Counted from the stretch's first letter, positions 1 to 57,100 are shown. The stretch: 64,000 nucleotides of DNA from a virus (IMGVR_UViG_3300032245_000795:1-64000); one strand, 5' to 3'. The notes: generated by a model not told the origin, from the letters alone. Numbers and translations: made by a program.

Positions 1-18
1 AAAACATGCTCAGGTTTA
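1..18 (-). ncRNA. partial copy of repeated H-type pseudoknot motif (cut by window start)
   Basis: minus strand AAAC-CUGAGCAU-GUUU; same loop as the other copies. Confidence 0.55.
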
Positions 19-32
19 TTAGTAGCCCCCTA

Positions 33-449
33 CTAAATATCGATACGGTCAACACTGGATGATAAATAAGTTACACCCTGCGGTTCTGATACTGAGTCAA
101 AATCAATTTCATGAATTAAATTCATTGCTGATTCTTCATCTCGTGCATTGACTGTAATTGAATATTGAACTGTAACTTCTAATTCAAATTCTTTTGATAA
201 TTCAAATCCGCAAATATCTGCAATTGATTGAGCAGTGTCTTCATCAATGGTACCAAATTCCATTGCTTCCAAGGTCCACTCTTGCATTTCATTAGTGATA
301 CGTGAGCGCTCTGCAGCCTCACCATATGAGCGCTGAGTTACTTTTTGGATGTGCTCTTCAAGTTGTTGAATTCGTTCTTTGTTTTGCACAAGAGTGGTTT
401 CTAAAAACTCTCGTGTCATGTAGTGATTGTCGATTACTGGTTGGTCCAT
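33..449 (-). CDS. hypothetical phage protein (N-terminal coiled coil)
   Basis: 138-aa ORF with AGAAAGAGG RBS and an upstream promoter at 482-503. Confidence 0.8.
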   Translation of the reverse strand: MDQPVIDNHYMTREFLETTLVQNKERIQQLEEHIQKVTQRSYGEAAERSRITNEMQEWTLEAMEFGTIDEDTAQSIADICGFELSKEFELEVTVQYSITVNARDEESAMNLIHEIDFDSVSEPQGVTYLSSSVDRIDI

Positions 450-481
450 GGGGGCCTCTTTCTGTTAGTTTGTTTAATTTA

Positions 482-511
482 ATTGTACTACGTGCCACTG
501 ACATTTGTCAA
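482..511 (-). promoter_or_regulatory. promoter TTGACA..TGTCAG-N10-TACAAT (PafBC/RecA-NDp-like)
   Basis: minus strand ttgaca-aatgtcagtggcacgtag-tacaat. Confidence 0.75.
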
Positions 512-523
512 GGGCCCTTTAGG

Positions 524-551
524 GTGAGCCTTTTTGGATCCTGCTCAGGAT
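524..551 (-). ncRNA. degenerate pseudoknot repeat copy
   Basis: AUC-CUGAGCAG-GAU-CCAAAAAG-GCUCA. Confidence 0.5.
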
Positions 552-627
552 GTCTGCTTCTTTGGGGCTGCAGTACCCCTGCTCTATAGTATTTCTATTA
601 TCGCCCTAATCAGCCTGGCGAATTATG

Positions 628-656
628 TTGAGCAGTTTATACACTTACTCAGGTGT
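628..656 (-). ncRNA. pseudoknot repeat copy
   Basis: ACAC-CUGAGUAA-GUGU-AUAAAC-UGCUCA. Confidence 0.65.
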
Positions 657-706
657 CTTATCTCAGGCATACCTGCACATCATGGCGCAGGCTTAGCAGA
701 GATAAA

Positions 707-1129
707 TTATAGGTAGCGAGCCACCGCATTGTATGTTGAGGTATTTACTGTTTCCTCATCTGTCATCTTTAAGATACGAATAGCATTTTCGATTTCCTCT
801 TTCATCTCACGATAAGTATGAGAACCCATTTGCTCAAAGTCACGCTCAGGTTCTTTTGGTAGTTCTGCCTGTGTAACTGTTAAGTCAAAGTCAATGTTCA
901 ATGTGTTATTCCATGAACGATAGTTAGTGCGGAAGTTTTCTGCCTTCTTGATGTTGGCAACGGCATAAGCAGAAAGTTCCTTCTGCCACTTTTCTCTTGC
1001 CTTTGTGTATTTTGCTTCATTTGCTTCTTGATTAGCATAGTTAGTGTTTAGTTCTACTAACTTTGTCTCAAGTGCCTTGATTACCTTTGGTGTTGCGATT
1101 TTAACGCTGATTGCTTTTCCTCTTGCCAT
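707..1129 (-). CDS. hypothetical protein (likely start MARGK at 1129)
   Basis: ORF track 707..1180; AAGGAAAAG RBS precedes ATG 1129, and the upstream extension overlaps an RNA motif. Confidence 0.8.
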   Translation of the reverse strand: MARGKAISVKIATPKVIKALETKLVELNTNYANQEANEAKYTKAREKWQKELSAYAVANIKKAENFRTNYRSWNNTLNIDFDLTVTQAELPKEPERDFEQMGSHTYREMKEEIENAIRILKMTDEETVNTSTYNAVARYL

Positions 1130-1160
1130 GTGGGTCTTTTCCTTTTCTGTTAGGGGGTTT

Positions 1161-1190
1161 GTTGAGCAGTTTGTATTCATGCTCAGGAAT
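1161..1190 (-). ncRNA. pseudoknot repeat copy
   Basis: AUUC-CUGAGCAU-GAAU-ACAAAC-UGCUCA. Confidence 0.65.
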
Positions 1191-1201
1191 AACTAATTAG
1201 A

Positions 1202-1366
1202 TTACTTAGCCGTCCAAGTTGTATAGCGGTGTGCGCCATTGACATCTAACTTAACACGAACATTTCCATTAGCCTGTGGTTCGATTGCTACGATTGTGCC
1301 TGTGACCTTTGACTTCTGTGTTGTGTATAGGTCGCCTACCTTGTATGTTGCTGTTGCTACTGACAT
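1202..1366 (-). CDS. 54-aa small beta-rich (SH3/KOW-like) protein, not in ORF track
   Basis: MSVATATYKVGDLYTTQKSKVTGTIVAIEPQANGNVRVKLDVNGAHRYTTWTAK; AAGGAG RBS; promoter at 1396-1417. Confidence 0.8.
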   Translation of the reverse strand: MSVATATYKVGDLYTTQKSKVTGTIVAIEPQANGNVRVKLDVNGAHRYTTWTAK

Positions 1367-1395
1367 TTATTTCTCCTTTGTTGTTGTATGTATTA

Positions 1396-1425
1396 AGTAT
1401 AACATTTCCTACTGACATTTTTCAA
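1396..1425 (-). promoter_or_regulatory. TGTCAG-N10-TATACT promoter
   Basis: ttgaaa-aatgtcagtaggaaatgt-tatact. Confidence 0.75.
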
Positions 1426-1526
1426 GTTGATACCTGAATAATCTCACTATGTGGAATTGTTATTTTGTTATGTAATAAGTATAGCAAAAAATCTAAGAAA
1501 TCTCAAATCCTGGGGAGGTTTTGGGG

Positions 1527-1542
1527 TGTGTCCTTAATCACA
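1527..1542. promoter_or_regulatory. CRP-like box (1 mismatch)
   Basis: TGTGT-ccttaa-TCACA. Confidence 0.5.
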
Positions 1543-1674
1543 TCTTAAATAGCATGTTAAAACTTGACAAATTAAAAATTTTGCGCTAGGGGGCCCATTT
1601 CACAACGGGCTTGCAAAAATTGCATATAAAAATATTGCAGTTAAAAATAAAATAATTATTTGTTTCATGCTATC

Positions 1675-2397
1675 TCATTTCTTAGTCGCAGAAAAAATTA
1701 TGTCACTCTTAGAGTATACACACAATGAACAAGAAACGCAAGCGGAGCCAGCCGATGAGATAAGTGGAATTTGTTTATTATTCTCAGGACACTTAGCGGC
1801 AGGACGACCAATCATTTCTTTTACATCTGCTTGACCAATAGCAAAATTCTTAGCAAGGTATGCCATGCGAACACCACTATTAATTTTTAGATCAACGGCA
1901 GTCTTAACATTCTCGCTATCTGCAGAAAAGTATAAACTAAGATTAGGAATGTCCTTAAGAATAAGCGCTGCACTCTTCACACGGGTGTACACCCAGAATT
2001 GAACATCCTCATGCTTATCAATAATTACTTTCCATGCATAGGCATAGGTATCATTAAAGAAATCTCCGTCCCAGTGGATGCGGAATAGCATAGGTGCATC
2101 TTTCTTGATACAATCATTCTTGAAATCAACAATCATCTCATTAAGCAAGCGGACCATAGTTTCGCCGTCTGCATCTTTAAGTAGATCCCAATTGTGTAAT
2201 AGATTTACTTTAACGGAAGGGAATACCTTTTCCAATTTGCCTGCATAGCAAACACTCTCGCAGACACTCGTAGCGCCAGGACATGAATAAGCCTTTCCTG
2301 CAGGTAATCCGAATGTATTGGCAATTGCTGCTTGTTTTCCATTTTTTGTGACAAGGTTAGCCACCTTTCTATCATTAGAACGTTTTAGTTTAGTCAT
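1675..2397 (-). CDS. GP88-like protein (actinophage gene product 88 family; Cys cluster)
   Basis: FGLPAG..SCPGAT..C...CYA, FRIHWDGDF, FWVYTR, and C-terminal CP..C..C..C motifs. Confidence 0.7.
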   Translation of the reverse strand: MTKLKRSNDRKVANLVTKNGKQAAIANTFGLPAGKAYSCPGATSVCESVCYAGKLEKVFPSVKVNLLHNWDLLKDADGETMVRLLNEMIVDFKNDCIKKDAPMLFRIHWDGDFFNDTYAYAWKVIIDKHEDVQFWVYTRVKSAALILKDIPNLSLYFSADSENVKTAVDLKINSGVRMAYLAKNFAIGQADVKEMIGRPAAKCPENNKQIPLISSAGSACVSCSLCVYSKSDIIFSATKK

Positions 2398-2507
2398 TAG
2401 TTATAACTCTCCTTGCAGTTAGCGCAAATTGAATGGAGTTTACAATAGCATGATTTAGCATCAGGGCGTATCATGTCTGTTTCATAGTAATCGTCATAGA
2501 AATCCAT
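2397..2507 (-). CDS. 36-aa Cys-rich protein
   Basis: MDFYDDYYETDMIRPDAKSCYCKLHSICANCKESYN; stop overlaps the next ATG (TAATG). Confidence 0.6.
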   Translation of the reverse strand: MDFYDDYYETDMIRPDAKSCYCKLHSICANCKESYN

Positions 2508-2513
2508 TGTGGG

Positions 2514-2654
2514 CTACTCTCTTTCTTTCTTTAATTGTATCATCAGGGACTGACATTTTTTACGGTCATACTTTTTCTTATTGGGTACGGCAGAGGCTGC
2601 ATTACTACGGCGTAATTCCATAAGCCTACGTAATTCCTCTTTTGATTTCTTCAT
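2514..2654 (-). CDS. 46-aa basic leaderless protein
   Basis: MKKSKEELRRLMELRRSNAASAVPNKKKYDRKK...; ATG 6 nt after TAAGAT of a TTGACA-18-TAAGAT promoter (2661-2690). Confidence 0.6.
   Translation of the reverse strand: MKKSKEELRRLMELRRSNAASAVPNKKKYDRKKCQSLMIQLKKERE
2534..2555 (-). promoter_or_regulatory. TGTCAG-N10-TACAAT promoter
   Basis: aatgtcag-tccctgatga-tacaat. Confidence 0.7.
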
Positions 2655-2699
2655 AAATTAATCTTAGCATACATGGGGATAAAATGTCAAATCTTAAAC

Positions 2700-2744
2700 T
2701 GTGATCAATCTCACACGGCGACACGCTAGATAAATTAACCTAGG
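2700..2744. promoter_or_regulatory. regulatory cassette: CRP box, CGACACGC, CTAG/CCTAGG
   Basis: TGTGA-tcaatc-TCACA 2700-2715; CGACACGC 2719-2726; CCTAGG 2739-2744. Confidence 0.7.
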
Positions 2745-2745
2745 C

Positions 2746-2773
2746 GATTTTGTGCAGGGAAGCACACAAAATC
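2746..2773. terminator. hairpin at the end of a gene block
   Basis: GATTTTGTG...CACAAAATC inverted repeat just after stop 2781. Confidence 0.5.
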
Positions 2774-2780
2774 ACTTTTA

Positions 2781-3020
2781 CTATTCTTCTTCAGTAAAAA
2801 CATACAACGGAATTAAATCCGTGTATGCATACTGTGTAAATTCTTTTTCACCAAATTCGTTTTGAGTTTGTATGTCATAGTTATCTCCAGTAGAATCACT
2901 TTCAATAAAAATTACTTCAACAATGTCTTCATCAACTTTAATTAAATCACCAAGCATTACTTGGTCTGGTGTTAAGTTATCTGCGTGGATCAATTCCATA
3001 GCAATCATTGTATCAGACAT
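2781..3020 (-). CDS. hypothetical protein
   Basis: 79-aa ORF, tightly coupled operon. Confidence 0.75.
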   Translation of the reverse strand: MSDTMIAMELIHADNLTPDQVMLGDLIKVDEDIVEVIFIESDSTGDNYDIQTQNEFGEKEFTQYAYTDLIPLYVFTEEE

Positions 3021-3290
3021 TTATTCTCCCTCTGGTAGCCAAAATGATAAGTGGTGTTGGTCTACAATTGCGTGTGCGGGTGCGTGACTCATTCCCTTAT
3101 AGAATACGCCTTCAGGCATAGCAATAAATCGGTTATAGTCCTCATCATAGTATGCGTCAATAGCATCTATGCAAGGTTGCACCATAGATAGTGGCACTGG
3201 TGGATAGTGATTACCTTGTAAGTGATAGGCAATCTGAGTTTCTAAGTCAAGCACTGAGTCCTGTATTCCTAACGCTGTTACGCTTCCCAT
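3021..3290 (-). CDS. hypothetical protein (HLQGNHYPPVP motif)
   Basis: 89-aa ORF, coupled. Confidence 0.75.
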   Translation of the reverse strand: MGSVTALGIQDSVLDLETQIAYHLQGNHYPPVPLSMVQPCIDAIDAYYDEDYNRFIAMPEGVFYKGMSHAPAHAIVDQHHLSFWLPEGE

Positions 3291-3508
3291 TATCGTGTTA
3301 CCACCATTCCTGTTTTGTAGAAAGTTTTTGTGTGCATTTTGCCTGATGGCTCTGATAGATTAACTGTTGCGTATTCATTAGCAAATCCGTGGTCTGTAAA
3401 TTTTTGATAAACTTCAACGGCAGATAAAGCATCACTATAACGACCAACCCACTTAGGCGTAGGTGATGAGTCATAGGTACAAGTAACTGAGTATAGGTAT
3501 TCGTTCAT
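3290..3508 (-). CDS. hypothetical protein, homologous to N-half of 29526..29981
   Basis: shared D.GFA.EY.TV.L.EP.GK..TK. Confidence 0.8.
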   Translation of the reverse strand: MNEYLYSVTCTYDSSPTPKWVGRYSDALSAVEVYQKFTDHGFANEYATVNLSEPSGKMHTKTFYKTGMVVTR

Positions 3509-3699
3509 TAGTTATTCTCCTTATAGTTTTCGTTCATGATACTTTCAGAATACCATTCGCAGTATTCATTTTCAAGAGACACGCCTTTAGCGCACTCACA
3601 AAATTCTGAGTCAAAGTCCTCGCCACCATTACCAAAAAAGAGGACACCCTCATCATAGCAATCGGTGCAATCAACCAAAAAGTCTAATAAGTTTCCCAT
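3508..3699 (-). CDS. small Cys-rich (CxxC...CxC) protein
   Basis: 63-aa ORF, coupled. Confidence 0.7.
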   Translation of the reverse strand: MGNLLDFLVDCTDCYDEGVLFFGNGGEDFDSEFCECAKGVSLENEYCEWYSESIMNENYKENN

Positions 3700-3703
3700 T
3701 TAT

Positions 3704-3916
3704 TTATTCTCCAACTCTTACAGATAGATAACGATAAGTGTCCTTTAGATTAAATACTGAAGGATAGTGAGGGCGTACCTGAACGCGATAACTTTCTAAG
3801 CCTGCGCCATAAAAGACATCAGACTTTTCTGCGTCAATTATTTCTCCTGTTAAAGTGCGTGAGTGATAAGTTTTTCCTACAAGTAGGTTTTCTATTGAAT
3901 AGACATTTGCTGACAT
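3704..3916 (-). CDS. small hypothetical protein
   Basis: 70 aa; AGAGG RBS; promoter at 3949-3970. Confidence 0.75.
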   Translation of the reverse strand: MSANVYSIENLLVGKTYHSRTLTGEIIDAEKSDVFYGAGLESYRVQVRPHYPSVFNLKDTYRYLSVRVGE

Positions 3917-3948
3917 TTGCCAACCTCTTTCTTTGTTGTTATTTATTT

Positions 3949-3970
3949 ATCCTACCATTAGGGTCTGACA
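3949..3970 (-). promoter_or_regulatory. TGTCAG-N10-TAGGAT promoter
   Basis: tttgtcag-accctaatgg-taggat. Confidence 0.7.
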
Positions 3971-4071
3971 AATATTTGTTATTTATTTTTCTTACTATGT
4001 AAGTTTAACCTATTAGACAAAAGTTATCAAACTACTGCCGAGTAGTCTTAAATAATGAGACGCTCAAGCCA

Positions 4072-4173
4072 TGTGATAAACTTCACAAAATTTTGGGCGT
4101 GTCGTAAACAACTTCTTAAATGACCTGTGGATAACCTGGTCTGACCTGTGGAAAACGGCCTAGATTGCCTAGG
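4072..4173. promoter_or_regulatory. regulatory cassette: CRP box, GCGTGTCG, two DnaA-type boxes, CCTAG/CCTAGG
   Basis: TGTGA-taaact-TCACA 4072-4087; GCGTGTCG 4097-4104; TGTGGATAA 4126-4134; TGTGGAAAA 4147-4155; CCTAGG 4168-4173. Confidence 0.75.
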
Positions 4174-4179
4174 AAAAAT

Positions 4180-4209
4180 TTAAGCAGTTTTAAATCATGC
4201 TCAGGATTT
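4180..4209 (-). ncRNA. pseudoknot repeat copy
   Basis: AAAUC-CUGAGCAU-GAUUU-AAAAC-UGCUUA, just after stop 4214. Confidence 0.65.
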
Positions 4210-4213
4210 TTAT

Positions 4214-4366
4214 TTATTTTTTAAGTCGTTCAGTTCGCAATGCAACCTGCAATCTACGAATTTCTTTTTCTAATTTGATGTTGTGTTTCCAAAACGCAAT
4301 CATCATTCCAACAGATCCAGCGAGTGCAATTACGATTGCGATTAGCGTTCCATTATCTAAAATCAT
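4214..4366 (-). CDS. 50-aa single-TM membrane protein, not in track
   Basis: MILDNGTLIAIVIALAGSVGMMIAFWKHNIKLEKEIRRLQVALRTERLKK; ATGA overlap with the upstream gene. Confidence 0.7.
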   Translation of the reverse strand: MILDNGTLIAIVIALAGSVGMMIAFWKHNIKLEKEIRRLQVALRTERLKK

Positions 4367-4548
4367 TTAGACATCTCCAATTCTTTAACGCAAGCATCCC
4401 AAAATCTGTTTTCATCAAATCTTGGATTGTCTGCACTAAACCATTCACTAAATTCAAAAATTAAATCTTGAAAAACGTGAGAGTCGATGTTATCTGAAAA
4501 CTGATTTAGAATTTTTGCAGTTTCTACATAGTCTTTTCGTGTCATCAT
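4363..4548 (-). CDS. hypothetical protein, homologous to C-half of 29526..29981
   Basis: R..Y..T ... F..DN.RF...RF. Confidence 0.8.
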   Translation of the reverse strand: MMTRKDYVETAKILNQFSDNIDSHVFQDLIFEFSEWFSADNPRFDENRFWDACVKELEMSK

Positions 4549-4754
4549 TATTTTGCCACCTTAAGAATTGCATAGGACCCGCCTGCGTTAATTTCATCAA
4601 GGATAGGTCCTAACTTTGGAGCAATTAAATCCTTAAGCATTGACTCAAGCATTATGATTTGCATTTCTTTTTCAAGGTTTGCTAATTGCTTTCCTACTGG
4701 ATGAGTTTCGTCTACCTCTGTGATAAACTTTAGATTGTGTTCGATTTGTACCAT
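4548..4754 (-). CDS. hypothetical protein
   Basis: 68-aa ORF, coupled. Confidence 0.7.
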   Translation of the reverse strand: MVQIEHNLKFITEVDETHPVGKQLANLEKEMQIIMLESMLKDLIAPKLGPILDEINAGGSYAILKVAK

Positions 4755-4773
4755 TGTTTTATTTCCTATTCTT

Positions 4774-4893
4774 TTAGTTTGATTCGGGAGTGGTGAATAA
4801 TTTAGTGCATGAGCATTTAACTATTGTTATTGTGTCCGATAGCGTTTCAATAGTAGCGAGTGTATCGCATGAGTCGCATAAAAAGATTTCCAT
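4774..4893 (-). CDS. 39-aa CxxC/CxC protein
   Basis: MEIFLCDSCDTLATIETLSDTITIVKCSCTKLFTTPESN; TAATG coupling. Confidence 0.55.
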   Translation of the reverse strand: MEIFLCDSCDTLATIETLSDTITIVKCSCTKLFTTPESN

Positions 4894-5078
4894 TATAGGC
4901 TACGGCTTCCGCGTAGTGTTCCGCTAACGCCTAATGCGTCACACGATACTTTTACCGCAACGCCAACAGGTAATTGTGTTGGGTATGTTGAGATAAACTG
5001 AGCAACCGCACCGCGAGAGGCAAGGTTGATTTTCTTAGTCGAACCATTAAAGGTTTCGAGTGTTATAGTGTATGTCAT
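4893..5078 (-). CDS. hypothetical protein
   Basis: 61 aa; GAAAGG RBS; promoter at 5112-5133. Confidence 0.75.
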   Translation of the reverse strand: MTYTITLETFNGSTKKINLASRGAVAQFISTYPTQLPVGVAVKVSCDALGVSGTLRGSRSL

Positions 5079-5111
5079 TTATTGACTACCTTTCGTTAAG
5101 TTGATAAGACT

Positions 5112-5133
5112 ATCTTATACTATGGGTCTGACA
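5112..5133 (-). promoter_or_regulatory. TGTCAG-N10-TAAGAT promoter
   Basis: tttgtcag-acccatagta-taagat. Confidence 0.7.
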
Positions 5134-5140
5134 AATTAGG

Positions 5141-5358
5141 CACTTATTCGCTTAGGCTCATTGTGATACTAATCACACTTATTTGCTAAGGCTCATTGCT
5201 TATTTATCTTTATTTAATTGTTATACCTACAAGGATACCAGAAAAATCTCACAAAATCAAATCGACACGCCGTAAATAGGGGGATAAAATAGTGTGACCT
5301 TAAACACATAGGTTATCCACATCACCCTGTGGACGACACGCTAGATAGATCGCCTAGG
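5141..5358. promoter_or_regulatory. regulatory cassette: CRP boxes, DnaA box, 2x CGACACGC, CCTAGG
   Basis: TGTGA-tactaa-TCACA 5162-5177; CGACACGC 5263 and 5334; TGTGA-ccttaa-ACACA 5293-5308; TTATCCACA 5313-5321; CCTAGG 5353-5358. Confidence 0.75.
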
Positions 5359-5362
5359 TAAA

Positions 5363-5388
5363 AATTGCAGAGTTTTATTTCTGCAATT
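5363..5388. terminator. hairpin, putative terminator
   Basis: AATTGCAGA...TCTGCAATT flanked by A/T runs. Confidence 0.55.
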
Positions 5389-5848
5389 CTTTTTTATTTA
5401 TAAATTACTTTGCGAATAAAGAAAACCAAAAACAATAAATGCAATCATTACAACTAACAATTTATTTCTCCTCAATTTCGTTTAGTAAATCCCAAAGTAC
5501 TGGCTCTAACTCTAACGCTACTGCGTCAAGTTTTTCTTGAAGTGTTTTCATTCGCTAACCTCTAATTCTGTATAATCAACAACAGTAAAATCAAGTCGTT
5601 CCAATGGAACAACCTTTAACCATGATAGGGCAGACTCGAAACTATCGTCCTCAATAGTAACTGATAAATCAAAATTAAATACTGGCATTATTTAACCTCC
5701 TTGTATAAGTAGTCCCACGCCTTACGGCATAACACGATAGAGTTGCAATTATCGCAACAGATAACCCCATGAGGGTTAAGGTCTAAGTCGTACATGTCTA
5801 TTGTGGTAGTAACCGCACCACATACGGATTTAATTGGTACAAAGGTAC

Positions 5849-6031
5849 TCATCTCTTGAGTCCGTCCTTTCCATAAGTGTTGATAAAATCAGGGAGAGCC
5901 ATAACGCCCTTGTAGTCTTTACATGAAGGGCAAAATCTATTCCACCCATCAAATAGTGTTATGCAAAAGGCGCAGATGTTATCCATAGCGCATAAGCCTT
6001 GCTCATCTATAAATTGCATAGTGTCGTTCAT
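5849..6031 (-). CDS. small Zn-ribbon-like protein
   Basis: CAFC...CPSC. Confidence 0.65.
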   Translation of the reverse strand: MNDTMQFIDEQGLCAMDNICAFCITLFDGWNRFCPSCKDYKGVMALPDFINTYGKDGLKR

Positions 6032-6213
6032 TTAGTCACATACCAATCTGTCCATGTAGGAAATTGCTCAGGGTCACTATCATAGTAGTAACGCTCAATG
6101 TTGCTATCGCAATTAACGCATAGAGTAAATTGCTCATCTCCAATTTCGGAGATAGCGGAAACAAGAGGCTCGTGCCACTTGCATAGTGTGTTTAGTGTAG
6201 TCATTTTGACCAC
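6028..6213 (-). CDS. small Cys/His protein
   Basis: CKWH...CVNC; GAAAGGTGG RBS suggests the downstream ATG (MTTLN) as start. Confidence 0.65.
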   Translation of the reverse strand: MVKMTTLNTLCKWHEPLVSAISEIGDEQFTLCVNCDSNIERYYYDSDPEQFPTWTDWYVTK

Positions 6214-6258
6214 CTTTCGTAGCGGATTTCTTTACCGCTTGTTTTTCTTTATACTGTA

Positions 6259-6288
6259 ATTGTAGCATGGGGGTCTGACAAATGTCTA
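6259..6288 (-). promoter_or_regulatory. TGTCAG-N10-TACAAT promoter
   Basis: tagaca-tttgtcagacccccatgc-tacaat. Confidence 0.7.
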
Positions 6289-6314
6289 ATTGAAAATGCT
6301 ACCAATTCGGACAT

Positions 6315-6412
6315 TGTGAGCCGTATCACATGAGACATAGGTCACATTTGTATGGTCATAAATAATAATGACTATTTTTATCAGCGTGTCGGCTTGACAA
6401 AAACGGCCTAGG
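6315..6412. promoter_or_regulatory. regulatory cassette: tandem CRP boxes, GCGTGTCG, CCTAGG
   Basis: TGTGA-gccgta-TCACA 6315-6330 abutting TGAGA-catagg-TCACA 6331-6346; GCGTGTCG 6384-6391; CCTAGG 6407-6412. Confidence 0.7.
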
Positions 6413-6842
6413 TAATTTTGCAGGGGATCTACAAAACTACTAACAATTAACTAAGTGAAATACCTAACACAACACACAATGCAACAGCAACGAATGCACT
6501 GATTAGTCCTGCTGCTGGATAGTCTTCTACCCAATCAATAAACATAGTAAATGGATTCATTATTTTGTTTCCTTTTCTTTTAGCATTCCAAGAATTAAAT
6601 TAAGTTGTTCAGTTGTTAGCAACGCTTGAGCACAACCCCAAGCAAATGCAAGTGCCATTGCACTATCTCCATAGTGCTCATTTGCAAGAGTGTTTATCTC
6701 TTGCGTTATCTCGAAATTAGTTTTCATTAGTTTGTTACCTTTCTTTCCATTTTACGTGCAACAATTACCCACATGATGATGAGAGGTGTATTTAGAATTA
6801 GTGCGCCTGCAATAATCTGAAGTAGTGCTGTAGTTGCGTTCA

Positions 6843-7028
6843 TTAGTTTTCTTCTTTCGCTAATAGGTATTCGTTATTTAGGGGGCGAGAGTTATTAGAA
6901 AACATAGCCTCCACTATAGCCTTGTCTTTTATTGACTGGGCAGCACGGCGTTCCTGCTGTTCCTTTAGGATTCGATTATAAGTGTCCATGTAGGGGGTCT
7001 GACCTTTCTTGTTGTTGTTATGTTGCAA
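6843..7028 (-). CDS. hypothetical protein (true start probably MDTYN)
   Basis: ORF track; GAAAGG RBS precedes the internal ATG. Confidence 0.6.
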   Translation of the reverse strand: MQHNNNKKGQTPYMDTYNRILKEQQERRAAQSIKDKAIVEAMFSNNSRPLNNEYLLAKEEN

Positions 7029-7049
7029 GTATAGCAGGGGGGACTGACA
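7028..7049 (-). promoter_or_regulatory. TGTCAG-N10-TATACT promoter
   Basis: tttgtcag-tcccccctgc-tatact. Confidence 0.7.
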
Positions 7050-7067
7050 AATTTGGGGTACTGGTGG

Positions 7068-7148
7068 GCGTGTCGTGAAACTATTTTATGTGATTTGCAT
7101 CACAAGAAATCTAAACAGCCTGTGGATAACTTTGCCTAGGGCGTGTCG
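7068..7148. promoter_or_regulatory. regulatory cassette: CRP box, DnaA box, 2x GCGTGTCG, CCTAGG
   Basis: GCGTGTCG 7068 and 7141; TGTGA-tttgca-TCACA 7089-7104; TGTGGATAA 7121-7129; CCTAGG 7135-7140. Confidence 0.75.
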
Positions 7149-7275
7149 GATTATGTGCTCACTATTTTTTTGTGGTATTATTTTTATAAACACGTATCAT
7201 ACATCTGAACAAAATATTCAGATTTTAGGCTATTTAGGTTTAAAAAATTTTTCAGAATTATGCTATAATAAAATC

Positions 7276-7374
7276 ATGACTGAAGAACTAGACGACTATG
7301 GCTATGAAGGCGATAAGTGCTGTGCAGGATGCACATGCACTATGGCCCATAGTTCAGTGCCACCAGTAGAATAA
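7276..7374 (+). CDS. 32-aa leaderless Cys-rich peptide
   Basis: TGCTATAAT-6nt-ATG; MTEELDDYGYEGDKCCAGCTCTMAHSSVPPVE. Confidence 0.5.
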   Translation: MTEELDDYGYEGDKCCAGCTCTMAHSSVPPVE

Positions 7375-7386
7375 CTCATTTTTGTA

Positions 7387-8061
7387 ATGAGTGACCTATT
7401 TCTATTTAACTCACCACCAAGATCAGGTAATGTTTTTCTGACTCTTCTATTTTCAATGTTCATTGGTGGACCAGTAACTAAATGTCTTGAAACAGAAAAA
7501 TATTCAGATAAGTCTCAAAAGCAAGCAGTATTTTTCAGAAACCCATATGACTCAATTCCATCAACTGTAGTAAAATCCAGGGTAGATTGTGGAATAGTAA
7601 TAAACCATAATGATACTGGAGATCTAAAGAACAACATACAGATTTGCGCTAAAGAATATTTACATGCAATTAAAGAAGCAAAGAAAAATACATCTAATAT
7701 ATATATTGGTAAATCAGAAAATATGATGAACAAACCACTAGCAACAATCAAAGATATCGCTCTATTTTTTGATTTAAAAATAAAAGACAATCATGGTTTA
7801 AATGATCAGCAAATTATTGAATATATAAGACATCAAATGAACAACACAGAAAGAACCAGGGTAGATAAAAACGGTATAACAATAACAGAGACTCTTATGT
7901 CAAGTCATGACGGACATATGCCTAGAGAAAAAACAGATGATAGAATTTTCCTAGACAAACTTATACAGTCATCAGATTTAGACATTGTAACTCAATGCTA
8001 TAACGAGTATGTGTCTCTTGAATTAACAGACACAAGCAAAGGACAAAGATGGGCATCTTAG
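7387..8061 (+). CDS. sulfotransferase-like P-loop protein
   Basis: 5'-PSB-like SPPRSGNVFL and 3'-PB-like FRNPYDSIPS motifs. Confidence 0.65.
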   Translation: MSDLFLFNSPPRSGNVFLTLLFSMFIGGPVTKCLETEKYSDKSQKQAVFFRNPYDSIPSTVVKSRVDCGIVINHNDTGDLKNNIQICAKEYLHAIKEAKKNTSNIYIGKSENMMNKPLATIKDIALFFDLKIKDNHGLNDQQIIEYIRHQMNNTERTRVDKNGITITETLMSSHDGHMPREKTDDRIFLDKLIQSSDLDIVTQCYNEYVSLELTDTSKGQRWAS

Positions 8062-48137: not shown

Positions 48138-51100
48138 TTGGCAGATGTAAACTCTAATATAAATATTAATTTTGATACAACTGCCGCTCTTGCACAACTA
48201 CGTTCTTTACAGGCAGGCCTCAGCAGGTTTCATCAAACACTTGCTGAGGGCAACCTGGCTGCTGCAAATGCTCAAAAAGGTTTAAACGCACAACTTATAC
48301 AATCTGTTGGTGCTACAGGAAAATTCTCAGCAAGCCAAGTTAAAGTTGCTGGAAGCACACTAGCGTTCACGTCTGCATTAGAAAAAAATAAACTATCTCT
48401 TCGTGATTATTACAGATACACCATGGCAGCAGCAACTGCCAATACTCGTGTAATGGGGAAGGCATTTGCAGAAGAACGAGAGATTATAAATCGTGCTCGC
48501 AGAGATAGAGTAAAAGCCTTACAAGCACAATATATCCAGATGAATAAATCCAATGCTGGGTTTATGGATGCAATTAAAATTATGCCAAAAAGCCTTCAAA
48601 TGGCTAGTGGAAAGTTTACAGAACTTGGAACAAGAATTCAGTATGCTGCACAAAAACAACAGTTCTTAAATCAACTATTAAAACAAGGATCAACACAACT
48701 ATTAAACTTTGGTAAGAATACTCAGTGGGCTGGTCGCCAGTTGATGGTTGGTCTCACAATGCCACTTGCCTTGTTTGGATCTGCAGCAGCAAAAGCATTT
48801 AAAGAGTTTGACGCTGAAGTTGTTAAGTTCCGTCGTGTATATGGAAATGCATTTACAAATGATGCAGAGGTTAATGCAGCAGTTGAAAATATAAGAAAAT
48901 TATCAAATGAGTATGTAAAGTATGGAGTCTCTGTTACAAAGACTATGGAGATGGCTGCAACAGCAGCAGCAGCAGGCTTTGAAGGATCAGCACTTACAAC
49001 ACAGGTTGAAACAGCAACAAAGTTAGCAGTACTTGGCCAGATTGAGCAGCAGCAGGCACTTGAAACAACAATATCTTTGCAAACTGCATTTGGTCTTTCT
49101 AGTGAAGACCTTGCAAAGAAAATTAACTTTCTTAACGCAGTAGAAAACCAAACACTTTTATCTATTGAAGATTTAACTATTGCAATTCCAAAAGCAGCAC
49201 CAGTTATAAAGCAACTTGGTGGATCTGTTGAAGATTTAGCCTTCTTCCTTACAGCAATGAAAGAGGGTGGAATTAATGCATCAGAAGGTGCTAACGCACT
49301 TAAGTCTGGTCTTGCATCATTAATTAATCCATCTGACAAAGCAGCAAAGTTTCTTGGCAACTTAGGAATTAATGTTAAAGGACTTGTTGAAGCAAACAAG
49401 GGTGACATAAAAGGAATTGTTGTTGGATTTGCAAGAGCCCTTGATGAACTTGATCCACTTAATCGTGCAAGAGCAATTGAGCAGATGTTTGGTAAGTTCC
49501 AGTTTGCACGTCTATCAACATTATTTCAGAATGTAACTAAGGATGGATCTCAAGCATCAAGAGCATTTCAATTAGCAGGGGCATCAATAGAAGAGTTAGC
49601 AATCTTATCCGAAAGAGAAATGAAGAAGATAGAAGACTCAACTGGTGCTAAATTCCAGGCAGCATTAGAGAACCTTAAGCAAGAAATTATGCCTTTAGGA
49701 AAAGCATTTCTTGAGGCTTTAACACCAGTAGTTAAGTTTTTTTCAGGACTTCTTGAAAAGTTTAATGGTCTTGGAGATAATACAAAAAAGGTTATTGCAA
49801 TAACTGTTGCAGCAGTTGCAGGTCTTGGCCCAGTACTACTTATGACATTTGGTCTTCTAATGAATGGTGTTGCAAACGTTATTAAATTGTTTGCAATGCT
49901 TCGTGGAGGAATTGCTAAGTTAAACGGACAAACAGGTGTAATGGGTGCAGGCTTTAACTATATGACACAAGAGCAGATTGAAAATGCTGCATCTTCTGAA
50001 CAACTTCACCAAACACATTCAAGATTAATACAAGTTTTTAATGTTGAAAAAAGTTCTGTAAATGCTCTTGCTGCATCCTACAATTCATTAAGTACACAGA
50101 TGAGAGGCATGGCAACACAGAACCCCGCGTTATTTGCAGGTGGAGTTCGTGGTGCTAAAAGAGCAGTAAGCGGATTACCACCAGTTAAAAAGTATAGAGA
50201 AGGAGTACTGAGCGTACCAGGTCCAAAGGGTGCAGGAGATGTTGTTCCAGCAATGCTTTCTCCAGGAGAAGCAGTTATTCCTACAGAAACAACTAATAAA
50301 TATAGAGGTTTGATTTCTGCAATGTTCCAAGATAAAGTTCCAGGATTTATGGCTGGAAGACTTCCTGGAGGACCAGGCAGAGGAATACCTTTATCATCAG
50401 GCCCAGAAGCCTTTAGAAAAGCGCAGCAGGCACAATACAGAAGAGTAAACGATGCTCGTCAGGGATATTCTGAACCACATCCAGAAAAGAAAACAGGACC
50501 AACTTTTGTTGGAATGCCAAAGGGATCTCAAGAAGCGTCACAGTCTAGACAAATTTTAGATAAGATTTCAGATCAAGTTAAAATTGGAAAATTTGGATCT
50601 GTTCCACCAACAAACTTTGGAACAATGCTTCAATCATTTTCTGGAAGAAGTTTTCCTGCACGTGGAGTTGGCGGTGTATACAGAAAATCTAATGGACAGA
50701 TAGTAGTAGTAAAACCAACAATAGATGAAAAAACTGCATTGGCAGAAGTTCGTGCTACTCAAATTGCTAGAGAAGTTCATGGACTTGTATCTCCAAAGCA
50801 AACTATTAGAACAATGATGGATCCAACAGATCCAACAGGTCAAAGAAAGTTTATTGTGATTGAGTCCCCATATGATCCAAGAATAGCCTCTATGACTGGT
50901 AAGTTTTCAAAGTCTGACATGGTTAAGCAATTAGTTGCATCAACGCTAAGAGGAGACAAAGATTTACAAAAACCAAACTTGTCTGGAAATGTGTTAGCAG
51001 ATGTTGGAACTGCTGGAGTATTCGATAGGGCATCTGGCTTTAGAGATTTTGCTAAAGTTATGCCAAGCATGGAACAACAAGCAGTTGTAAATCTTCTTGG

Positions 51101-54100
51101 AGTTAAGGGTGGAGCAAAGAAGTTTTTTGCACAAGAAACATCTGGTGTAGCAGCATCTATGTCTCCAAAAGACTATGATTTAGCAATAAAGACAGAAATT
51201 TCTAAATCAATTCCAAGACTAGAAAAACTTCTTAAGACTTGGAATTTAAATCCAGAAGAAAAAATTGTTTATGGAAATATGCTACAAAGACTCAGAGATG
51301 GAGCAAAAACAGATTGGGCAGCATTACAGCCTATACATGCTCGTGCAGGAGAAGGAGTTGCTAAATTAGAATTAGGAAACTTTGAAAAATTCCAAAATGT
51401 TCCAGAGTCAAAAGCACAAGTTGAAAAACTTGTAGAGGGTTTATCAAAAGATGCAGCAGAACAATTGGAAAAGTTACCTAAAGAACAAAGAGATAGAGTG
51501 CTTGCTGCACTAGGAAAAGAAAAACCAGCACCAACACATATGAGCCAAGCAAGGCTAATGAAATTTGTAGAACAAAATATGGTTTACAAAGATGGTCTAT
51601 TCCATGATAAAAAATCTTTAGATGCTGGAAGTACAACATCTGGAAAAACTTATGAAGAAGTTATGAAGAAAGTTTTTTATCAGATGGGCCTTCAAGAAAA
51701 AGATGGTTCTTTTGTAAGCGATAAAAAATTAAATGTTCCATCTAAACTAAAGTCTGCAATGAGCACTGTAGACAAAGCAGGTGGAGGCTGGAGAACAAAC
51801 GTACCAAAAAGTTCATTGCTTTGGAAAGCCTTAGATGCAGAAGAGCAAAGTTTTAGAGCAGCAAATATGGCTGCAGGCAAAAACGATCCATTAAAAAATG
51901 TAAGAGAAAAACTTAAGTCTCTAGGTTATAATGAAAAACAAATTGCTACTGCGCTAAGATCTGAGTTATCGCATGTAGAAAAAACTGGAGAATCTGGAAG
52001 AGGTCCTGCAAAGTATTCAAAGGGATCAGCAATGTTCGACTTAAGACTACTAAATAACTACATGAATACAAAGACTAGACCTCAAAGTATTTTAGACTGG
52101 AACGCAAAAAATGGAAATGCTCTTGGATTAACAGCAACACAGATTAAAGAATTTCAAAAAGCAGCAAACTATATGAAACCTGGGGCACACCCAATAACAT
52201 TAGATGATATAAAATTAGTTCAAAAATCCGCACAACTTGATGTTTTAGCAGATGAATATCTAAAACAACAAAAGGTAAAGCCAAAGGGTTTTCCAAAACT
52301 AGGACAAGTTAATGCTTCTAAGGGGCTTTTGGCACTTCTTGATGACAGAATTGGAACAGGATACTACAAATCTTCAAAACCAATTTTTAATTTATCAAGC
52401 GGTGTAGATCAAAGTCAAAAGGTTTTAGTAGATCCAAATAACGAATTTAAAGTCGATACTAAGACTGGAAAAGTAACAAAGTTAACAAACGCTAATACAG
52501 GAGCAAAGCCTGCTGGAGCAGTTGCTAGTAGTGGAAGTTCAAGAGACAGAAGGACTACGACAGAAACACCAACACAAAGAGTTGCAACAAGAAGTCAACT
52601 TACAAGTTTCCGCAGAGGGTTTGGTAAAATTCCTGGATTCTCTATGCCTGGAAAAATCAAGGGAGACCCAAGACTAACAAACCCTACAGTAAAACAAGGA
52701 CAGTTAGCATTGCAGTTACGTGGCAAAGGATATAGCCAGGTAGAAATTGATAGAGCACTTAGAAGGTTTGCAGAAAAAGAATTAAAAAATAAAGAATCAC
52801 AGGTTCGTGCTGCTGAAAAATCAGCAAGAGCAGAAGCAGCAAGACAAAAAGAACAAGCAGCAATACAAAAAAAACAAACAGATGTTGCAAGAAAAGCATT
52901 TATAGAAAATGAGCGCAGATCACAACTAAATGCAGCACAAGCAAGAACATATGATGCTGCAGTAAAAGAAGATCAAAAGAGAACAATAAAAAATCAAAAA
53001 CAAACTGAAAAAGTAAATGCTAAACAAACAAGAATAGCACGTCAAGAAAAGGTTGGTAGATTCTCTGGCGGTGCATCTATGGCTCTTGGAACTGTTGGTA
53101 TGGGTCTTATGATGTCTGGGAATACAAATGCTGGCATGGCTGTATCAGGTTTGTCAGCCCTTGCAGGAATGGCCCCGATGCTTGCTGGTATGGGACCAGT
53201 AGGAGTAGCCCTGACTGCTGTAGCAGCAGTTGGTGGAGGGCTTTGGATGCTAGACAAGGCAGCAAAGAAAGCAGCAGAATCACAGTCTAGACAAGTTGAT
53301 GCAACAAGAGCAACAACAGAAAAAATGAAAACCATTGGAGAAATGAATGGCAAAGTTGGAGCATCTGAAATTTATGCAAGAAAAAGAAAAGAATCGGTAG
53401 CCAATAGATATTCTATTGGTTTTGAAAGAGGAAAAACCCAATATGGATCAGACTTTTTAAAAGAACAAGTTGGAAAAGATATGTTTTCTGGCATTATAGA
53501 AAGTTTAAAGTCTGGTTCTAAAAATGTTGCATCTCAGGTAGCAACAGAACTTGCTGGTTATATTTCTGATGGAATATTAACTGCACAGCAAGCAAACAGT
53601 ATTGCTGATCAGATTGGAATTGAGTTAGGCAATACTACAATTGGTGCAGATATTACTGGAAAACTACTAGAATTGGTCGGTCCAAATGGAGAAGATTTAT
53701 TAACAAATCCACTAGAAGTAAGAGTTAAAATAGTTAAAGAACAACAGAAAAATACTCAATTAGTTATGAGTGAGTTAGAAAAGTATTATAATTGGTCAGG
53801 TAAAAACAATAACGGTTTTGATGACAAGTCCGATGCTGCAAACGCTGCAGAAGTTTTTGCATCTCAGGCTGCAGCAGCAAATGTACAGGATTTAGAGTTT
53901 AATCAAGCGCAAATAGATTCTTTAAATCTTGAGTACGACAATAAAATAAAAATACTTGAAGCACAAAAAGCAACTACATCAGACAAAGCAAAGCAGTTAG
54001 AAATTCAAGGAAAAATTGATGCTGCTGAGAAAGATCGTATAACAGGAACAAAAAAATTACGAGAAAATAATAGAAAAATTATACAAGAACAAATGAAAGC

Positions 54101-57100
54101 CCTTAAGTTTGTAAAGACAAATCAAAAACAAGGTTCAGAGGCAAGTGTAGAAACTGCATACTTTGAAGCATTAAAAACTCAAGTTAGGGACAAGTACAAA
54201 GACGATCCAACACAAAATGCATTTGTAGATAAATTTTTTCAAGTTGCACAGAATGCAGGTAGCCAAGAAATAGAAGCAAAGATTATGACTGTTGTTGGTT
54301 CTGGTCAAATGCCAGTTACATCAGCAGTTAAGTTAATGGAAATGTTTGCTGGAGATGAAAAAGGACTTAATAAGATTCTTAATGTAACAACATCAATTGC
54401 AGATCCTGGAAAAGTAACAGAGTTCTTAAACTCTATTGAATTAATAACAGATCCCAATACAAAAAAAGAGATTATGGTAGAACTAACACAAAAGTCTCCA
54501 AAAGAAGCAGAAGGAATAATGTCTGCTTTTAATATGATGAAATTATTAAATCCAGAAATAAATATAGACTTCTTTTTTAAAGATGGTGGCGCAGCAGGAA
54601 TTGGAAAACTTAAGGAAATTGCAGACAAACTTGAAGAAGTTCAAAAAATAAAAGAGCCAATAACAACAAAGTTTTTGCTAGAGACAAAAGAAATTGGTGG
54701 GGTAAACCTAGAAGATCTTATTCCAATTATGGAAAAATACAAAAATCAACCAGATGTTATAAAAAAACAAGTTATTTCACAATATATTGTTATAAAAGAA
54801 ACACTTAATCCAGGAGAGATTGCAGCAGAAAAGAAAAGGCTTTTAGCAGGATATAAGGGAAATCCAAAGGGAGCCGAGCAGTATTCGGAGTACCTAAACT
54901 CTCCAGAAGGAACAAAATATGTTACAAATAAGGTTGTTGAAAATAAAATTGCACAAGCCATTAAGCCTGAGATAGAAGCACTAGAGGCAGCACGTCTTGA
55001 AGCAGAAAAACTAAAGGGAGATAAAGTTACTGACCCATTTGAATGGATGTTAGCAGCATTAAAGAATGTTCGCAACGCTGCAATAGATGCAAAGGGTGGA
55101 ATTGAAGAATTAAAAAGAGCACTTGCAAAAATTGGTCCAAAGGCTGTAGGAGATAAGTTCTTAGGAATAGATCAACAAATGATTGCTCAAGGACGTAATA
55201 AGCAGTTTATTGATTACGCTATGGGATTAACACCTGATGAGCAGGCAAAACTTTTCACTACCGCTGGACCTAAAAATAAAAGTGGTAAAAACAAGGGAAG
55301 AATACAAGACCCATATAACAAGGGCAAATTATTACCAGAGACAGCAAAACAAGGCGATGTAGTACTATCTAGCCTTGGAAAAACATATAATAGTTTCTTT
55401 GATGCAAAAGTCATTGGAGATTTCAATGCTGCAATGGGCAGATCTCTTTCATCAATAAAAGATCAAGAGAAGGCAAGAATTAAATTAGTTGCTGCTGGAT
55501 ATGATTCTGCAACAATAGAAGGTCTAATATCAGATGAATATACTACACAGTTAATTGCTTCAGGTAAAATAACAGAAGGTCAACTAAAGCAAAATGTTGA
55601 AATTTCTAAAGAACTTGCCAATAGACAAAAAATTAATAGCCTACTTTCTAGAGGTACATCAGAATTGCAAAGGCAAGCAGATATGTCAAGAGCAGCACAG
55701 GCTGCAAAGTTCTTACGTAGTCAAGGTGTTTCAGAAGATGGTGTGAGGGCAGCCCTTGCAGATGCAGGTTCATTGTCAGAAGCAATTGCTGCTATGGATC
55801 AATATAACTCTTCTGCTGGGCTTGCTGCTGGTACACTTAAAACCATTGTTGATGGACTTAACGCTATAAAGGCAAACTCAAATATAGAATTAATTCTTAA
55901 ATTTACAACAGCAAATGTTTCAGGGCAGATTCAGCAAGGAGCAGAAGCAGCCAAAAAGATAATGGACTCAAAGAGAACAGTCTACAATAATCTAACTGCT
56001 GACAAATTAAAAAATGCAACTTCGGCATATACAGATTCAAGTAAAGCCCCTCAACAAGTTGGTAAGATTGCAACAGCAACTGTAGATGCAAGGTATAAAG
56101 CAACAAATACTCCAATACCAGTGATATCAGAAGGCGCAACAATAAAGAGTCTTCAAAAAGCAATGGAAACTAAGGCTAAAGAAATAGATCTTTCATCTTC
56201 AAATCTTAGCAAGGCTAAATCTGCAGCGTCTGCAGTAAGAGATCAAATTTCAAATGCAGAAAACGCTTTGCAGACAGCACTAGATAATGCTAATGCAGGC
56301 GTTGATAAAGCAATTAAGGGAGTTCAAGATGTCATTAGAGGTTATGAAAATCAGATCAAGTCAATAGAAAAAACTATAAAGTCCAGAGAAGATGAAATAA
56401 AGAAAAGATTTACAGATAAAATAGAGGCATTTAATAAAGAAAACCAAATGCTAAGTAATGACCTTGCAATAATGGACAAGGCTGCAGAAGATATTAATGA
56501 GAAGTATGATAAGCAAGTAGAAGCCTTGCAGGAAGTAAACAAATTAAATCAAGAAATTATTGATGCACAGGGACAGCAGTTAGACCTGGCTGATGCTCTT
56601 TCTCAAGGTGATATCGCAGCAGCAGCAAGAGTTGCAAATGAGATGTCAGCATCTTATGCAAACAATCAAGCAGACACAATAATGCAGGGTATTGAACTTG
56701 CCAGAACTAATGATTTGTCAGCCTTAACTGGTGCAGAAAGCGGACTAACTGCAGATGCTATTTCAGAAAGACAATTTGCTATAAGTCAAGAAATTTATAA
56801 ACTAGAAACAGATCCTGCAAGATTGGCAATTGAAGCAGAAATACTAGCACTAAATGAAAGTGCTCTTGCAGTACAAGAATTAATTGCTGCAAAACAAGAA
56901 GAGATTGATCAAATTGAGGCTGGAAGAGCAAATATTTTAGCAGGTGTAGAGGCAGCCCATGCAGCAAACCTAAAGGCTTTGAATGATTCTTTAGTTCCAC
57001 TTGATGAGGCAGTAAAGAAAAATGAAGGAATATTAAAAAAGTTAGAAGATGAAGAAGAAGCATTGTCAGCACAAAAAGGATATCTTGAAGCAATTGCAGA

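Follow-up and report, generated by a model that had tools for sequence, protein, structure and literature searches.

What is the short RNA structure that recurs in the first kilobases of the phage genome IMGVR_UViG_3300032245_000795, and what might it do there? An earlier note, written from the sequence of the genome's first 64 kb (positions 1–64000, hereafter the window), had described five minus-strand copies of a roughly 30-nt H-type RNA pseudoknot, mostly at gene 3′ ends, and had not recognized its family. We find that these copies belong to an uncatalogued and very widespread phage RNA family, a compact H-type pseudoknot whose two helices are both backed by covariation and whose placement leads us to infer a role as a cis-acting block or boundary.

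Covariation Supports Both Helices of the Pseudoknot

All five copies were found at their places when the minus strand was read directly (Table 1). The element is 27–30 nt long and runs, 5′ to 3′, through the first strand of a 3–5-bp stem (S1) closed by an invariant C-G pair, a single C (L1), UGAGYA, one base, the second strand of the stem (S1′), a linker ending in AAAC, and UGCUYA. The second helix (P2) has 6 bp and joins the hairpin loop (UGAGYA or UGGGYA) to the 3′ tail (UGCUYA or UGCCYA). Folding restricted to nested pairs yields P2 alone and is unable to display the knot. Covariance model R1 matches copies A, B, and C (at 4210, 1192, and 658) with E values from 6e-10 to 6e-9. Two substitutions in the window, UGAGUA in the copy ending at 656 and UGCUUA in the copy ending at 4209, give U.G and G.U wobbles on the minus strand and A.C mismatches on the other; the wobbles thus pair on the gene-sense strand only, and the note's view of an RNA rather than a DNA element stands. 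The window contains four further CCTGAGYA matches (6065, 9947+, 19359, and 32358), which have neither stem nor tail and are therefore regarded as chance occurrences.

A pattern scan of IMG/VR (CCTGAGYA, 5–12 nt, AAACTGCTYA) returned at least 139 matches at at least 119 loci. Among the matches listed, the gap measures exactly 7 nt in 96, whereas an even spread of lengths would be expected by chance; many contigs carry 2–4 copies. Alignment A1 contains 93 distinct copies. The two S1 pairs beside the closing pair (8-19 and 7-20) are paired in 93/93 of its rows with three to four pair types each, the next pair outward is paired in 80% of rows, and a fifth pair is at chance level. The closing G is invariant despite being unspecified in the search pattern. 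The S1 covariation score is 0.367, compared with 0.115 for shuffles and 0.04–0.08 when the partners are slid.

Because P2 was fixed in the first pattern, we scanned for forced double variants, in which both partners of one P2 pair were held off the consensus and the resulting combinations counted. For pair 3 (A-U) this gave at least 120 loci, and among the matches listed 107/120 are G..C, including 90/90 of those with an S1 stem and a 7-nt gap; the other eight combinations total 13 matches, none with a stem. Pair 4 (G-C) gave 36 loci, and A..U accounts for 15 of the 20 stem-bearing double variants, in at least four different S1 contexts. At pairs 2 and 5 the only alternatives are G-C/G.U and C-G/U.G; double variants of pair 5 (Y-G) number six matches in the whole collection, none with a stem. 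Pair 6 (A-U) is essentially invariant, with eight double-variant matches in the scan, none of them convincing. The terminal pair 1 is occasionally changed or lost, and three of about five distinct variants remain paired, a weak indication. Both P2 classes can coexist in one contig. A free descriptor search of the fetched loci for other loop sequences found nothing above the shuffled level.

Compensatory changes therefore support the pseudoknot in both helices, in S1 throughout the alignment and in P2 at pairs 3 and 4, and the element is a real H-type pseudoknot family. The note had staked the structure on covariation persisting in a larger alignment, and it persists in the 93 copies and the forced P2 variants. 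Several positions are held for reasons beyond pairing.

The Family Is Uncatalogued and Spans Many Phages and Hosts

No known family accounts for the element, in keeping with the note's claim of novelty. Rfam 15 gave no match at the gathering score across the window, and at E values up to 10 over positions 1–4400 it listed four matches, none overlapping a copy. A literature search on the motif strings yielded only unrelated papers, and another, on exonuclease-resistant pseudoknots of phages, yielded no account of such an element.

Among prokaryote genomes sampled at one per species, 45/120 pattern matches are bona fide. The contigs carrying these bona fide copies are assigned to Bacteroidota, Firmicutes, Actinobacteriota, Chloroflexota, Cyanobacteria, Planctomycetota, Proteobacteria, Patescibacteria, and Omnitrophota. 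Copies in cultured phages were confirmed by model R1: Mycobacterium phage Labelle (46.6 bits, between gp85 and tRNA-Gln), Moorella phage MTATph1 (44.7 bits), the Synechococcus cyanophage S-RIM4 (44.7 bits), Paracoccus phage ParKuw1 (40.2 bits, a T7-like member of the Autographiviridae), Lactobacillus phage phiEF-1.1 (35.0 bits), and Corynebacterium phage phi673 (30.6 bits). A further copy (30.8 bits) follows a peptidase gene in Sigmofec virus UA08Rod_4626 (locus L435, 1499-1529), a member of the Microviridae with a 6-kb single-stranded DNA genome, so the element extends beyond the tailed phages. Staphylococcus matches were discounted, as they lie inside genes and cover only the A-rich 5′ part of the query. 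A BLAST search from a copy adjoining an Hsp20 gene returned no named phage.

One sequence shared by so many hosts and by differing RNA polymerases points to either an autonomous fold or a universal cellular partner. Its occurrence both in phages transcribed by the host RNA polymerase and in a T7-like Autographiviridae phage argues for a posttranscriptional role, that is, for action on RNA rather than on transcription.

Copies Often Follow Stop Codons and Some Precede tRNA Genes

We studied the genomic context of 234 stem-bearing copies, related contigs included. The longest flanking open reading frame (ORF) lies on the motif strand in 190 vs. 31 cases upstream and in 179 vs. 36 cases downstream, while only 9/234 copies fall within a same-strand ORF. 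The position after stop codons described for the window holds across this wider set. Never fewer than 7 nt separate the stop codon from the closing C of S1, and the mode is 8–9 nt (48 copies at 8 nt and 28 at 9 nt, or 76 of about 170), with a tail beyond 40 nt; the stop codons are TAA (125), TAG (35), and TGA (10). Distances to the next Shine-Dalgarno-led start are broad, at 11–40 nt in 85/187 copies and above 100 nt in 72. Immediately 3′ of the motif, a 9-nt stretch is G-poor (1–12% G, and 1–9% at positions +1 to +6) and rich in C and U, with a G directly after P2 in 2/234 copies. At least six T occur within the next 9 nt in 36/225 copies vs. 6/225 in a control window, and CCA follows P2 in 21/234 copies (9%) and in none of the window copies.

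A same-strand tRNA gene begins 3–13 nt after the motif in 20/234 copies, where about 0.1 would be expected, and these genes represent six tRNA identities; the reverse order, tRNA then motif, was seen in three related contigs. At genome positions 88149-88163 the P2 3′ strand UGCCCUA of the copy at 88125 is repeated 1 nt on as the first seven bases of tRNA-Asn (the acceptor 5′ strand). The loop could thus pair with either copy, which suggests a tie between the knot and tRNA 5′ processing.

Among the genes whose ends precede the motif are those for DUF932 (20), Hsp20 (16), major head proteins (about 9), SSB, GroES, and a decoration protein, while those starting after it are scattered among nucleases, polymerases, primase-helicase, RtcB, and PhoH, tallies that are not independent counts since related contigs share synteny. 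The phage's own Hsp20 gene has no pseudoknot after it, unlike that of many other phages; in its place, at genome 99415-99520, is an 11-bp inverted repeat, CCCCACACAGG...CCUGUGUGGGG, around about 60 nt. Of 123 genes directly downstream of a knot (alignment A4), 8 match endonuclease or nuclease PHROGs (phrog_452, phrog_20876), which hints that some copies border mobile nuclease cassettes.

A Proposed 3′ Boundary for the Upstream Gene and Its Alternatives

The element appears to belong to the upstream gene because it is tied to the stop codon, is often cut off downstream by a tRNA 5′ end or a promoter, follows genes for abundant proteins such as Hsp20, capsid protein, and SSB, and sits where the genome is without intrinsic terminators (prediction placed none near any copy). 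Copies D and F lie directly before sigma-70-like promoters, and copy H lies at a convergent junction. On the strength of this ownership we favor, tentatively and with somewhat less than even confidence, a role in which the knot, proof against the ribosome, caps or delimits the 3′ end of the upstream cistron. Among the functions that the note had entertained (3′ protection, processing, termination, and protein or ligand binding), the context thus favors 3′-end protection or a boundary and argues against efficient termination.

As we envisage it, the compact H-type pseudoknot would act in cis within the sense transcript, without a dedicated protein. The L1 C would span the deep groove of P2, and the AAAC linker could sit in the minor groove of S1. 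The knot would stand as near the stop codon as possible without being opened by the terminating ribosome. According to work on the ribosomal helicase, a helix can come no nearer than about 11 nt to the first P-site base without being opened. When the stop codon occupies the A site, an S1 starting 4–5 nt beyond that codon falls at about this distance, and the knot would thus abut the terminating ribosome unmelted. RNase P might then cut the transcript downstream at a neighboring tRNA, or an endonuclease might do so in the G-poor linker, leaving an upstream message that would end in the folded knot with a tail too short for PNPase, RNase II, and RNase R. The upstream cistron would outlive its neighbors, with a longer message life and a higher yield relative to what follows. 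REP elements and intercistronic stabilizer hairpins likewise follow a cistron and have been proposed to block 3′ exonucleases and thereby to produce differential expression within an operon. They are long, GC-rich, and lineage-specific, whereas the phage knot is tiny and keeps one conserved sequence across phyla.

Several points weigh against a 3′ cap. Approached from its 3′ side, the knot is merely a 6-bp helix to unzip, and a GC-rich hairpin seems a better exonuclease block. Pseudoknots are notable for resisting machines that move 5′ to 3′, as frameshifting knots and coremin both illustrate. Roughly half of the copies stand farther from the stop codon than the minimum, and synteny shared among related contigs inflates the gene tallies. 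The near-invariant L1, AAAC, and four P2 pairs exceed the needs of a passive cap and may instead reflect a specific partner or a tertiary fold. Contigs from RNA runs over positions 1–4400 are short pieces of relatives at 85–95% identity and are uninformative on RNA ends; their apparent joints, 4208->19 and 4211->14, arise because the contig end cuts copy E. The paper on mycobacteriophage Patience gives proteomics and no transcript map.

The main rival, which we consider unlikely, turns the direction around: the knot would be a mechanical roadblock to 5′-to-3′ traffic, halting RNase J, 5′-end-dependent RNase E scanning, stray or sliding ribosomes, or Rho, and protecting or insulating the RNA downstream. 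Its model is coremin (xrRNA-C) and the Watson–Crick variant xrRNA-WCC of beny-, cucumo-, and picorna-like RNA viruses, which share with the phage knot a very short C-G-closed stem, a one-base L1, pairing of the loop with a spacer after an A-rich AAA(C) linker, the string AAACU, a length of 20–30 nt, location in intergenic or 3′ regions, and a proposed protein-free mechanical block (PMC6546385, PMC10520033, PMC10321173); coremin halts Xrn1 as well as scanning ribosomes, and it promotes frameshifting (PMC10520033, PMC10321173). The 3–5-bp C-G-closed phage stem fits this family, but the phage loop has 8 nt (C-UGAGYA-N) rather than YGAD or YGNNAD (with an hp1 of 3 bp), P2 has 6 bp rather than 0–3 bp, and the conserved 10-nt coremin spacer GUUAAACUAC is not found, the phage spacer reading (N)NAAAC then UGCUYA with only AAACU in common. 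Coremin also requires a second hairpin (hp2), which cannot form in the G-poor 9 nt after the phage motif; these show no conserved pairing, and a start codon or tRNA often follows 3–30 nt on. The hosts of the phage knot are bacteria, without Xrn1, and RNase J is absent from many host groups. A roadblock would suit the spacing from the stop codon, which is the same as that of frameshift and readthrough knots, and the existence of tandem copies. It sits poorly with a motif that is tied to the upstream stop rather than the downstream start, that often lies 3–13 nt from a downstream tRNA, where RNase P cleavage would separate the two, that promoters after copies D and F keep out of the downstream transcripts, and that has abundant-protein genes upstream rather than downstream; its placement argues for service to the upstream gene, not to the downstream RNA.

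Other explanations are less probable still. It is quite doubtful that the knot is a recognition or processing signal for a universal enzyme, either as a tRNA acceptor-arm mimic read by RNase P or the CCA-adding enzyme or as a site for a conserved protein. A near-invariant sequence in phages of at least nine phyla would fit such a partner, as would the association with tRNA genes, the UGCCCUA shared with the tRNA-Asn acceptor strand, the enrichment of CCA after P2, and the stack of S1 on P2 (about 10–11 bp with a free 3′ tail), which resembles pseudoknotted tRNA-like acceptor arms; yet the large majority of copies, including all those in the window, lack the CCA, and no conserved partner gene turned up, though no search aimed at one was made. 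We regard as improbable a signal for transcriptional pausing, attenuation, or termination, with the knot acting on RNA polymerase as it forms. Copies do lie where terminators would be expected, before promoters and at a convergent junction, and T runs are enriched after them, but most copies have no U tract (it is present in 16%) and the usual combination of a GC-rich hairpin and U tract is not seen. Efficient termination would also silence the starts that lie 11–40 nt on and the tRNAs that lie within 13 nt, and the motif is found in a T7-like phage with its own RNA polymerase. Similarly low is the probability that the knot modulates translation at the stop codon, controlling stalling, recycling, or reinitiation through pressure on the mRNA entry channel: the sharp 7-nt minimum, the mode at 8–9 nt, and an S1 whose first pair lies about 11 nt away from the P-site codon, at the ribosomal helicase boundary, all fit, while about half of the copies lie further off, up to more than 50 nt. 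Since so few copies fall within a same-strand ORF, a general role in readthrough or frameshift extension is excluded, and a recoding pseudoknot was rejected on that count and because copy B meets an in-frame stop after three codons. The strong conservation of unpaired positions and a topology like that of the preQ1-I aptamer recall a small ligand-binding aptamer or self-cleaving ribozyme, which we hold to be very improbable, as a 1-nt L1, a 6-bp P2, and a 1-nt junction leave no obvious pocket, no metabolic gene class is associated among the flanking genes, and Rfam returned no match. We give almost no credence to a DNA-level site, whether an operator with inverted half-sites (TGAGCA...TGCTCA) or a recombination site, a reading already disfavored; the two conserved hexamers form an inverted repeat and the motif occurs at cassette boundaries, but a protein-binding site would not explain an inner stem that covaries freely, wobbles confined to one strand, or an orientation that tracks genes.

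Three further pseudoknots invite comparison. The −1 frameshift knots of luteoviruses (beet western yellows virus) and the retroviral readthrough knot are likewise compact H-type folds that begin a few nucleotides beyond the A-site codon, with a C in L1 and an AACAAA-like linker in the S1 minor groove. The phage knot differs in its longer P2, in needing no slippery site, and in following a stop codon with no open frame beyond. The autoregulatory knot of gene 32 in phages T2 and T4 is also a phage mRNA pseudoknot with a 1-nt L1 over a 6–7-bp second stem, but it is a single structure in a 5′ leader that nucleates gp32 binding, whereas the present element occurs in many copies, at gene ends, and in unrelated phages. 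The preQ1-I aptamer (RF00522) is an H-type fold of about 30 nt with an A-rich linker and a tail that pairs with the loop. Unlike it, the phage knot matches no Rfam model, has a 6-bp P2 and no binding pocket, and is not upstream of queuosine genes.

If the proposed function is true, the knot would be among the most widespread phage cis-acting RNA elements missing from catalogues, and it would reveal how message boundaries and the expression level of each gene are set in dense, terminator-poor phage genomes. It would also offer a 30-nt, host-independent part for stabilizing or insulating cistrons in engineered operons, and the resemblance to coremin would connect the ways in which viruses of bacteria and of eukaryotes evade RNA decay. 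One might go further and see in this 30-nt knot, common to phages across bacteria, a prokaryotic counterpart of the RNAs by which eukaryotic viruses withstand exonucleases and ribosomes, namely a mechanical stop that needs no protein, marks message ends in long transcripts, sets the yields of neighboring genes, and is portable to any host; we think this possible, though on balance not likely. Several cultured phage-host pairs carry the knot, so the question is directly testable.

The Source Genome and Other Features of the Window

The window is the first part of a 115,083-bp genome (G+C 36.6%) that IMG/VR labels linear and complete. Portal, protease, capsid, tail-fibre, and ribonucleotide-reductase genes are present. 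Megablast of window positions 1–8000 against phage records gave no match, and the portal protein shares just 46–48% identity with those of Streptomyces phages; the genome is without a close named relative. Parts of it recur in freshwater and lake metagenomes from 16 studies, and public runs put the phage in lake water. Three further copies were found outside the window by a search with model R1 (Table 1). Position 1 falls within copy E and the two genome ends have no overlap; the genome start at this copy is probably an assembly break at a repeat, not a physical end.

Table 1. Pseudoknot copies and neighboring features (window coordinates; rows marked "genome" lie outside the window). Stop distances run from the end of the stop codon to the closing C of S1.
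Feature	Position	Strand	Sequence and parts	Placement and matches
Copy A	4181..4209	-	AAAUC-C-UGAGCA-U-GAUUU-AAAAC-UGCUUA; S1 4209-4205 with 4196-4192; L1 C4204; P2 4203-4198 with 4186-4181 (one G.U); linker AAAAC 4191-4187	8 nt past TAA 4216-4214 (-); R1 43.2 bits, E 6.4e-10
Copy B	1163..1190	-	AUUC-C-UGAGCA-U-GAAU-ACAAAC-UGCUCA; S1 1190-1187 with 1178-1175; L1 C1186; P2 1185-1180 with 1168-1163; linker ACAAAC	14 nt past TAA 1204-1202; next start ATG 1129, about 34 nt downstream; R1 40.1 bits
Copy C	629..656	-	ACAC-C-UGAGUA-A-GUGU-AUAAAC-UGCUCA; S1 ACAC/GUGU; P2 UGAGUA/UGCUCA (one U.G)	53 nt past TAA 709-707; R1 39.7 bits
Copy D (divergent)	525..551	-	AUC-C-UGAGCA-G-GAU-CCAAAAAG-GCUCA; S1 AUC/GAU; 8-nt linker; P2 5 bp (UGAGC/GCUCA)	After copy C, directly upstream of the promoter-like site 511-482; weak R1 score, E about 1
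Copy E (cut by contig end)	1..17	-	AAAC-C-UGAGCA-U-GUUU; S1 AAAC/GUUU and loop kept, tail missing	18 nt past TAG 35-33; partial R1 match, E 0.025
Copy F (genome)	98906-98938	+		Just 5′ of an extended -10 (sigma-70-like) promoter and the Hsp20 gene
Copy at 88125 (genome)	88125-88155	+		8 nt past stop codon; ends 1 nt before tRNA-Asn gene
Copy H (genome, weak)	102174-102204	-		Closes a tRNA unit at a convergent junction
Sigma-70-like promoter	482..511	-	TTGACA, 18 nt, TACAAT; 11/12 consensus matches	Begins the transcription unit that comes just after copies C and D
50-aa ORF	4214..4366	-		Stop precedes copy A; no family match
54-aa ORF	1202..1366	-		Stop precedes copy B; no family match
138-aa ORF	33..449	-		Stop precedes copy E; no family match

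Window positions 1–4400 hold small, densely packed minus-strand ORFs with sigma-70-like promoters. Among these early genes, between pseudoknot copies, lies a gene for a 240-aa protein of the GP88 Pfam family (1675-2397, minus strand; PF17338, E 7e-54). Further along the window, a giant ORF (48138-60407, plus strand, 4,089 aa), a candidate for a virion or tail protein, is followed by one of 1,444 aa (61033-65367). The 9-mer AAATGTCAG occurs five times on the minus strand (498-506, 1360-1368, 1412-1420, 2550-2558, and 3910-3918), where about 1.2 occurrences would be expected. It stands directly after a −35-like TTGACA or TTGAAA twice and twice forms the start, ATG-TCA-G, of a small early ORF, and it may be a common early promoter or leader module.

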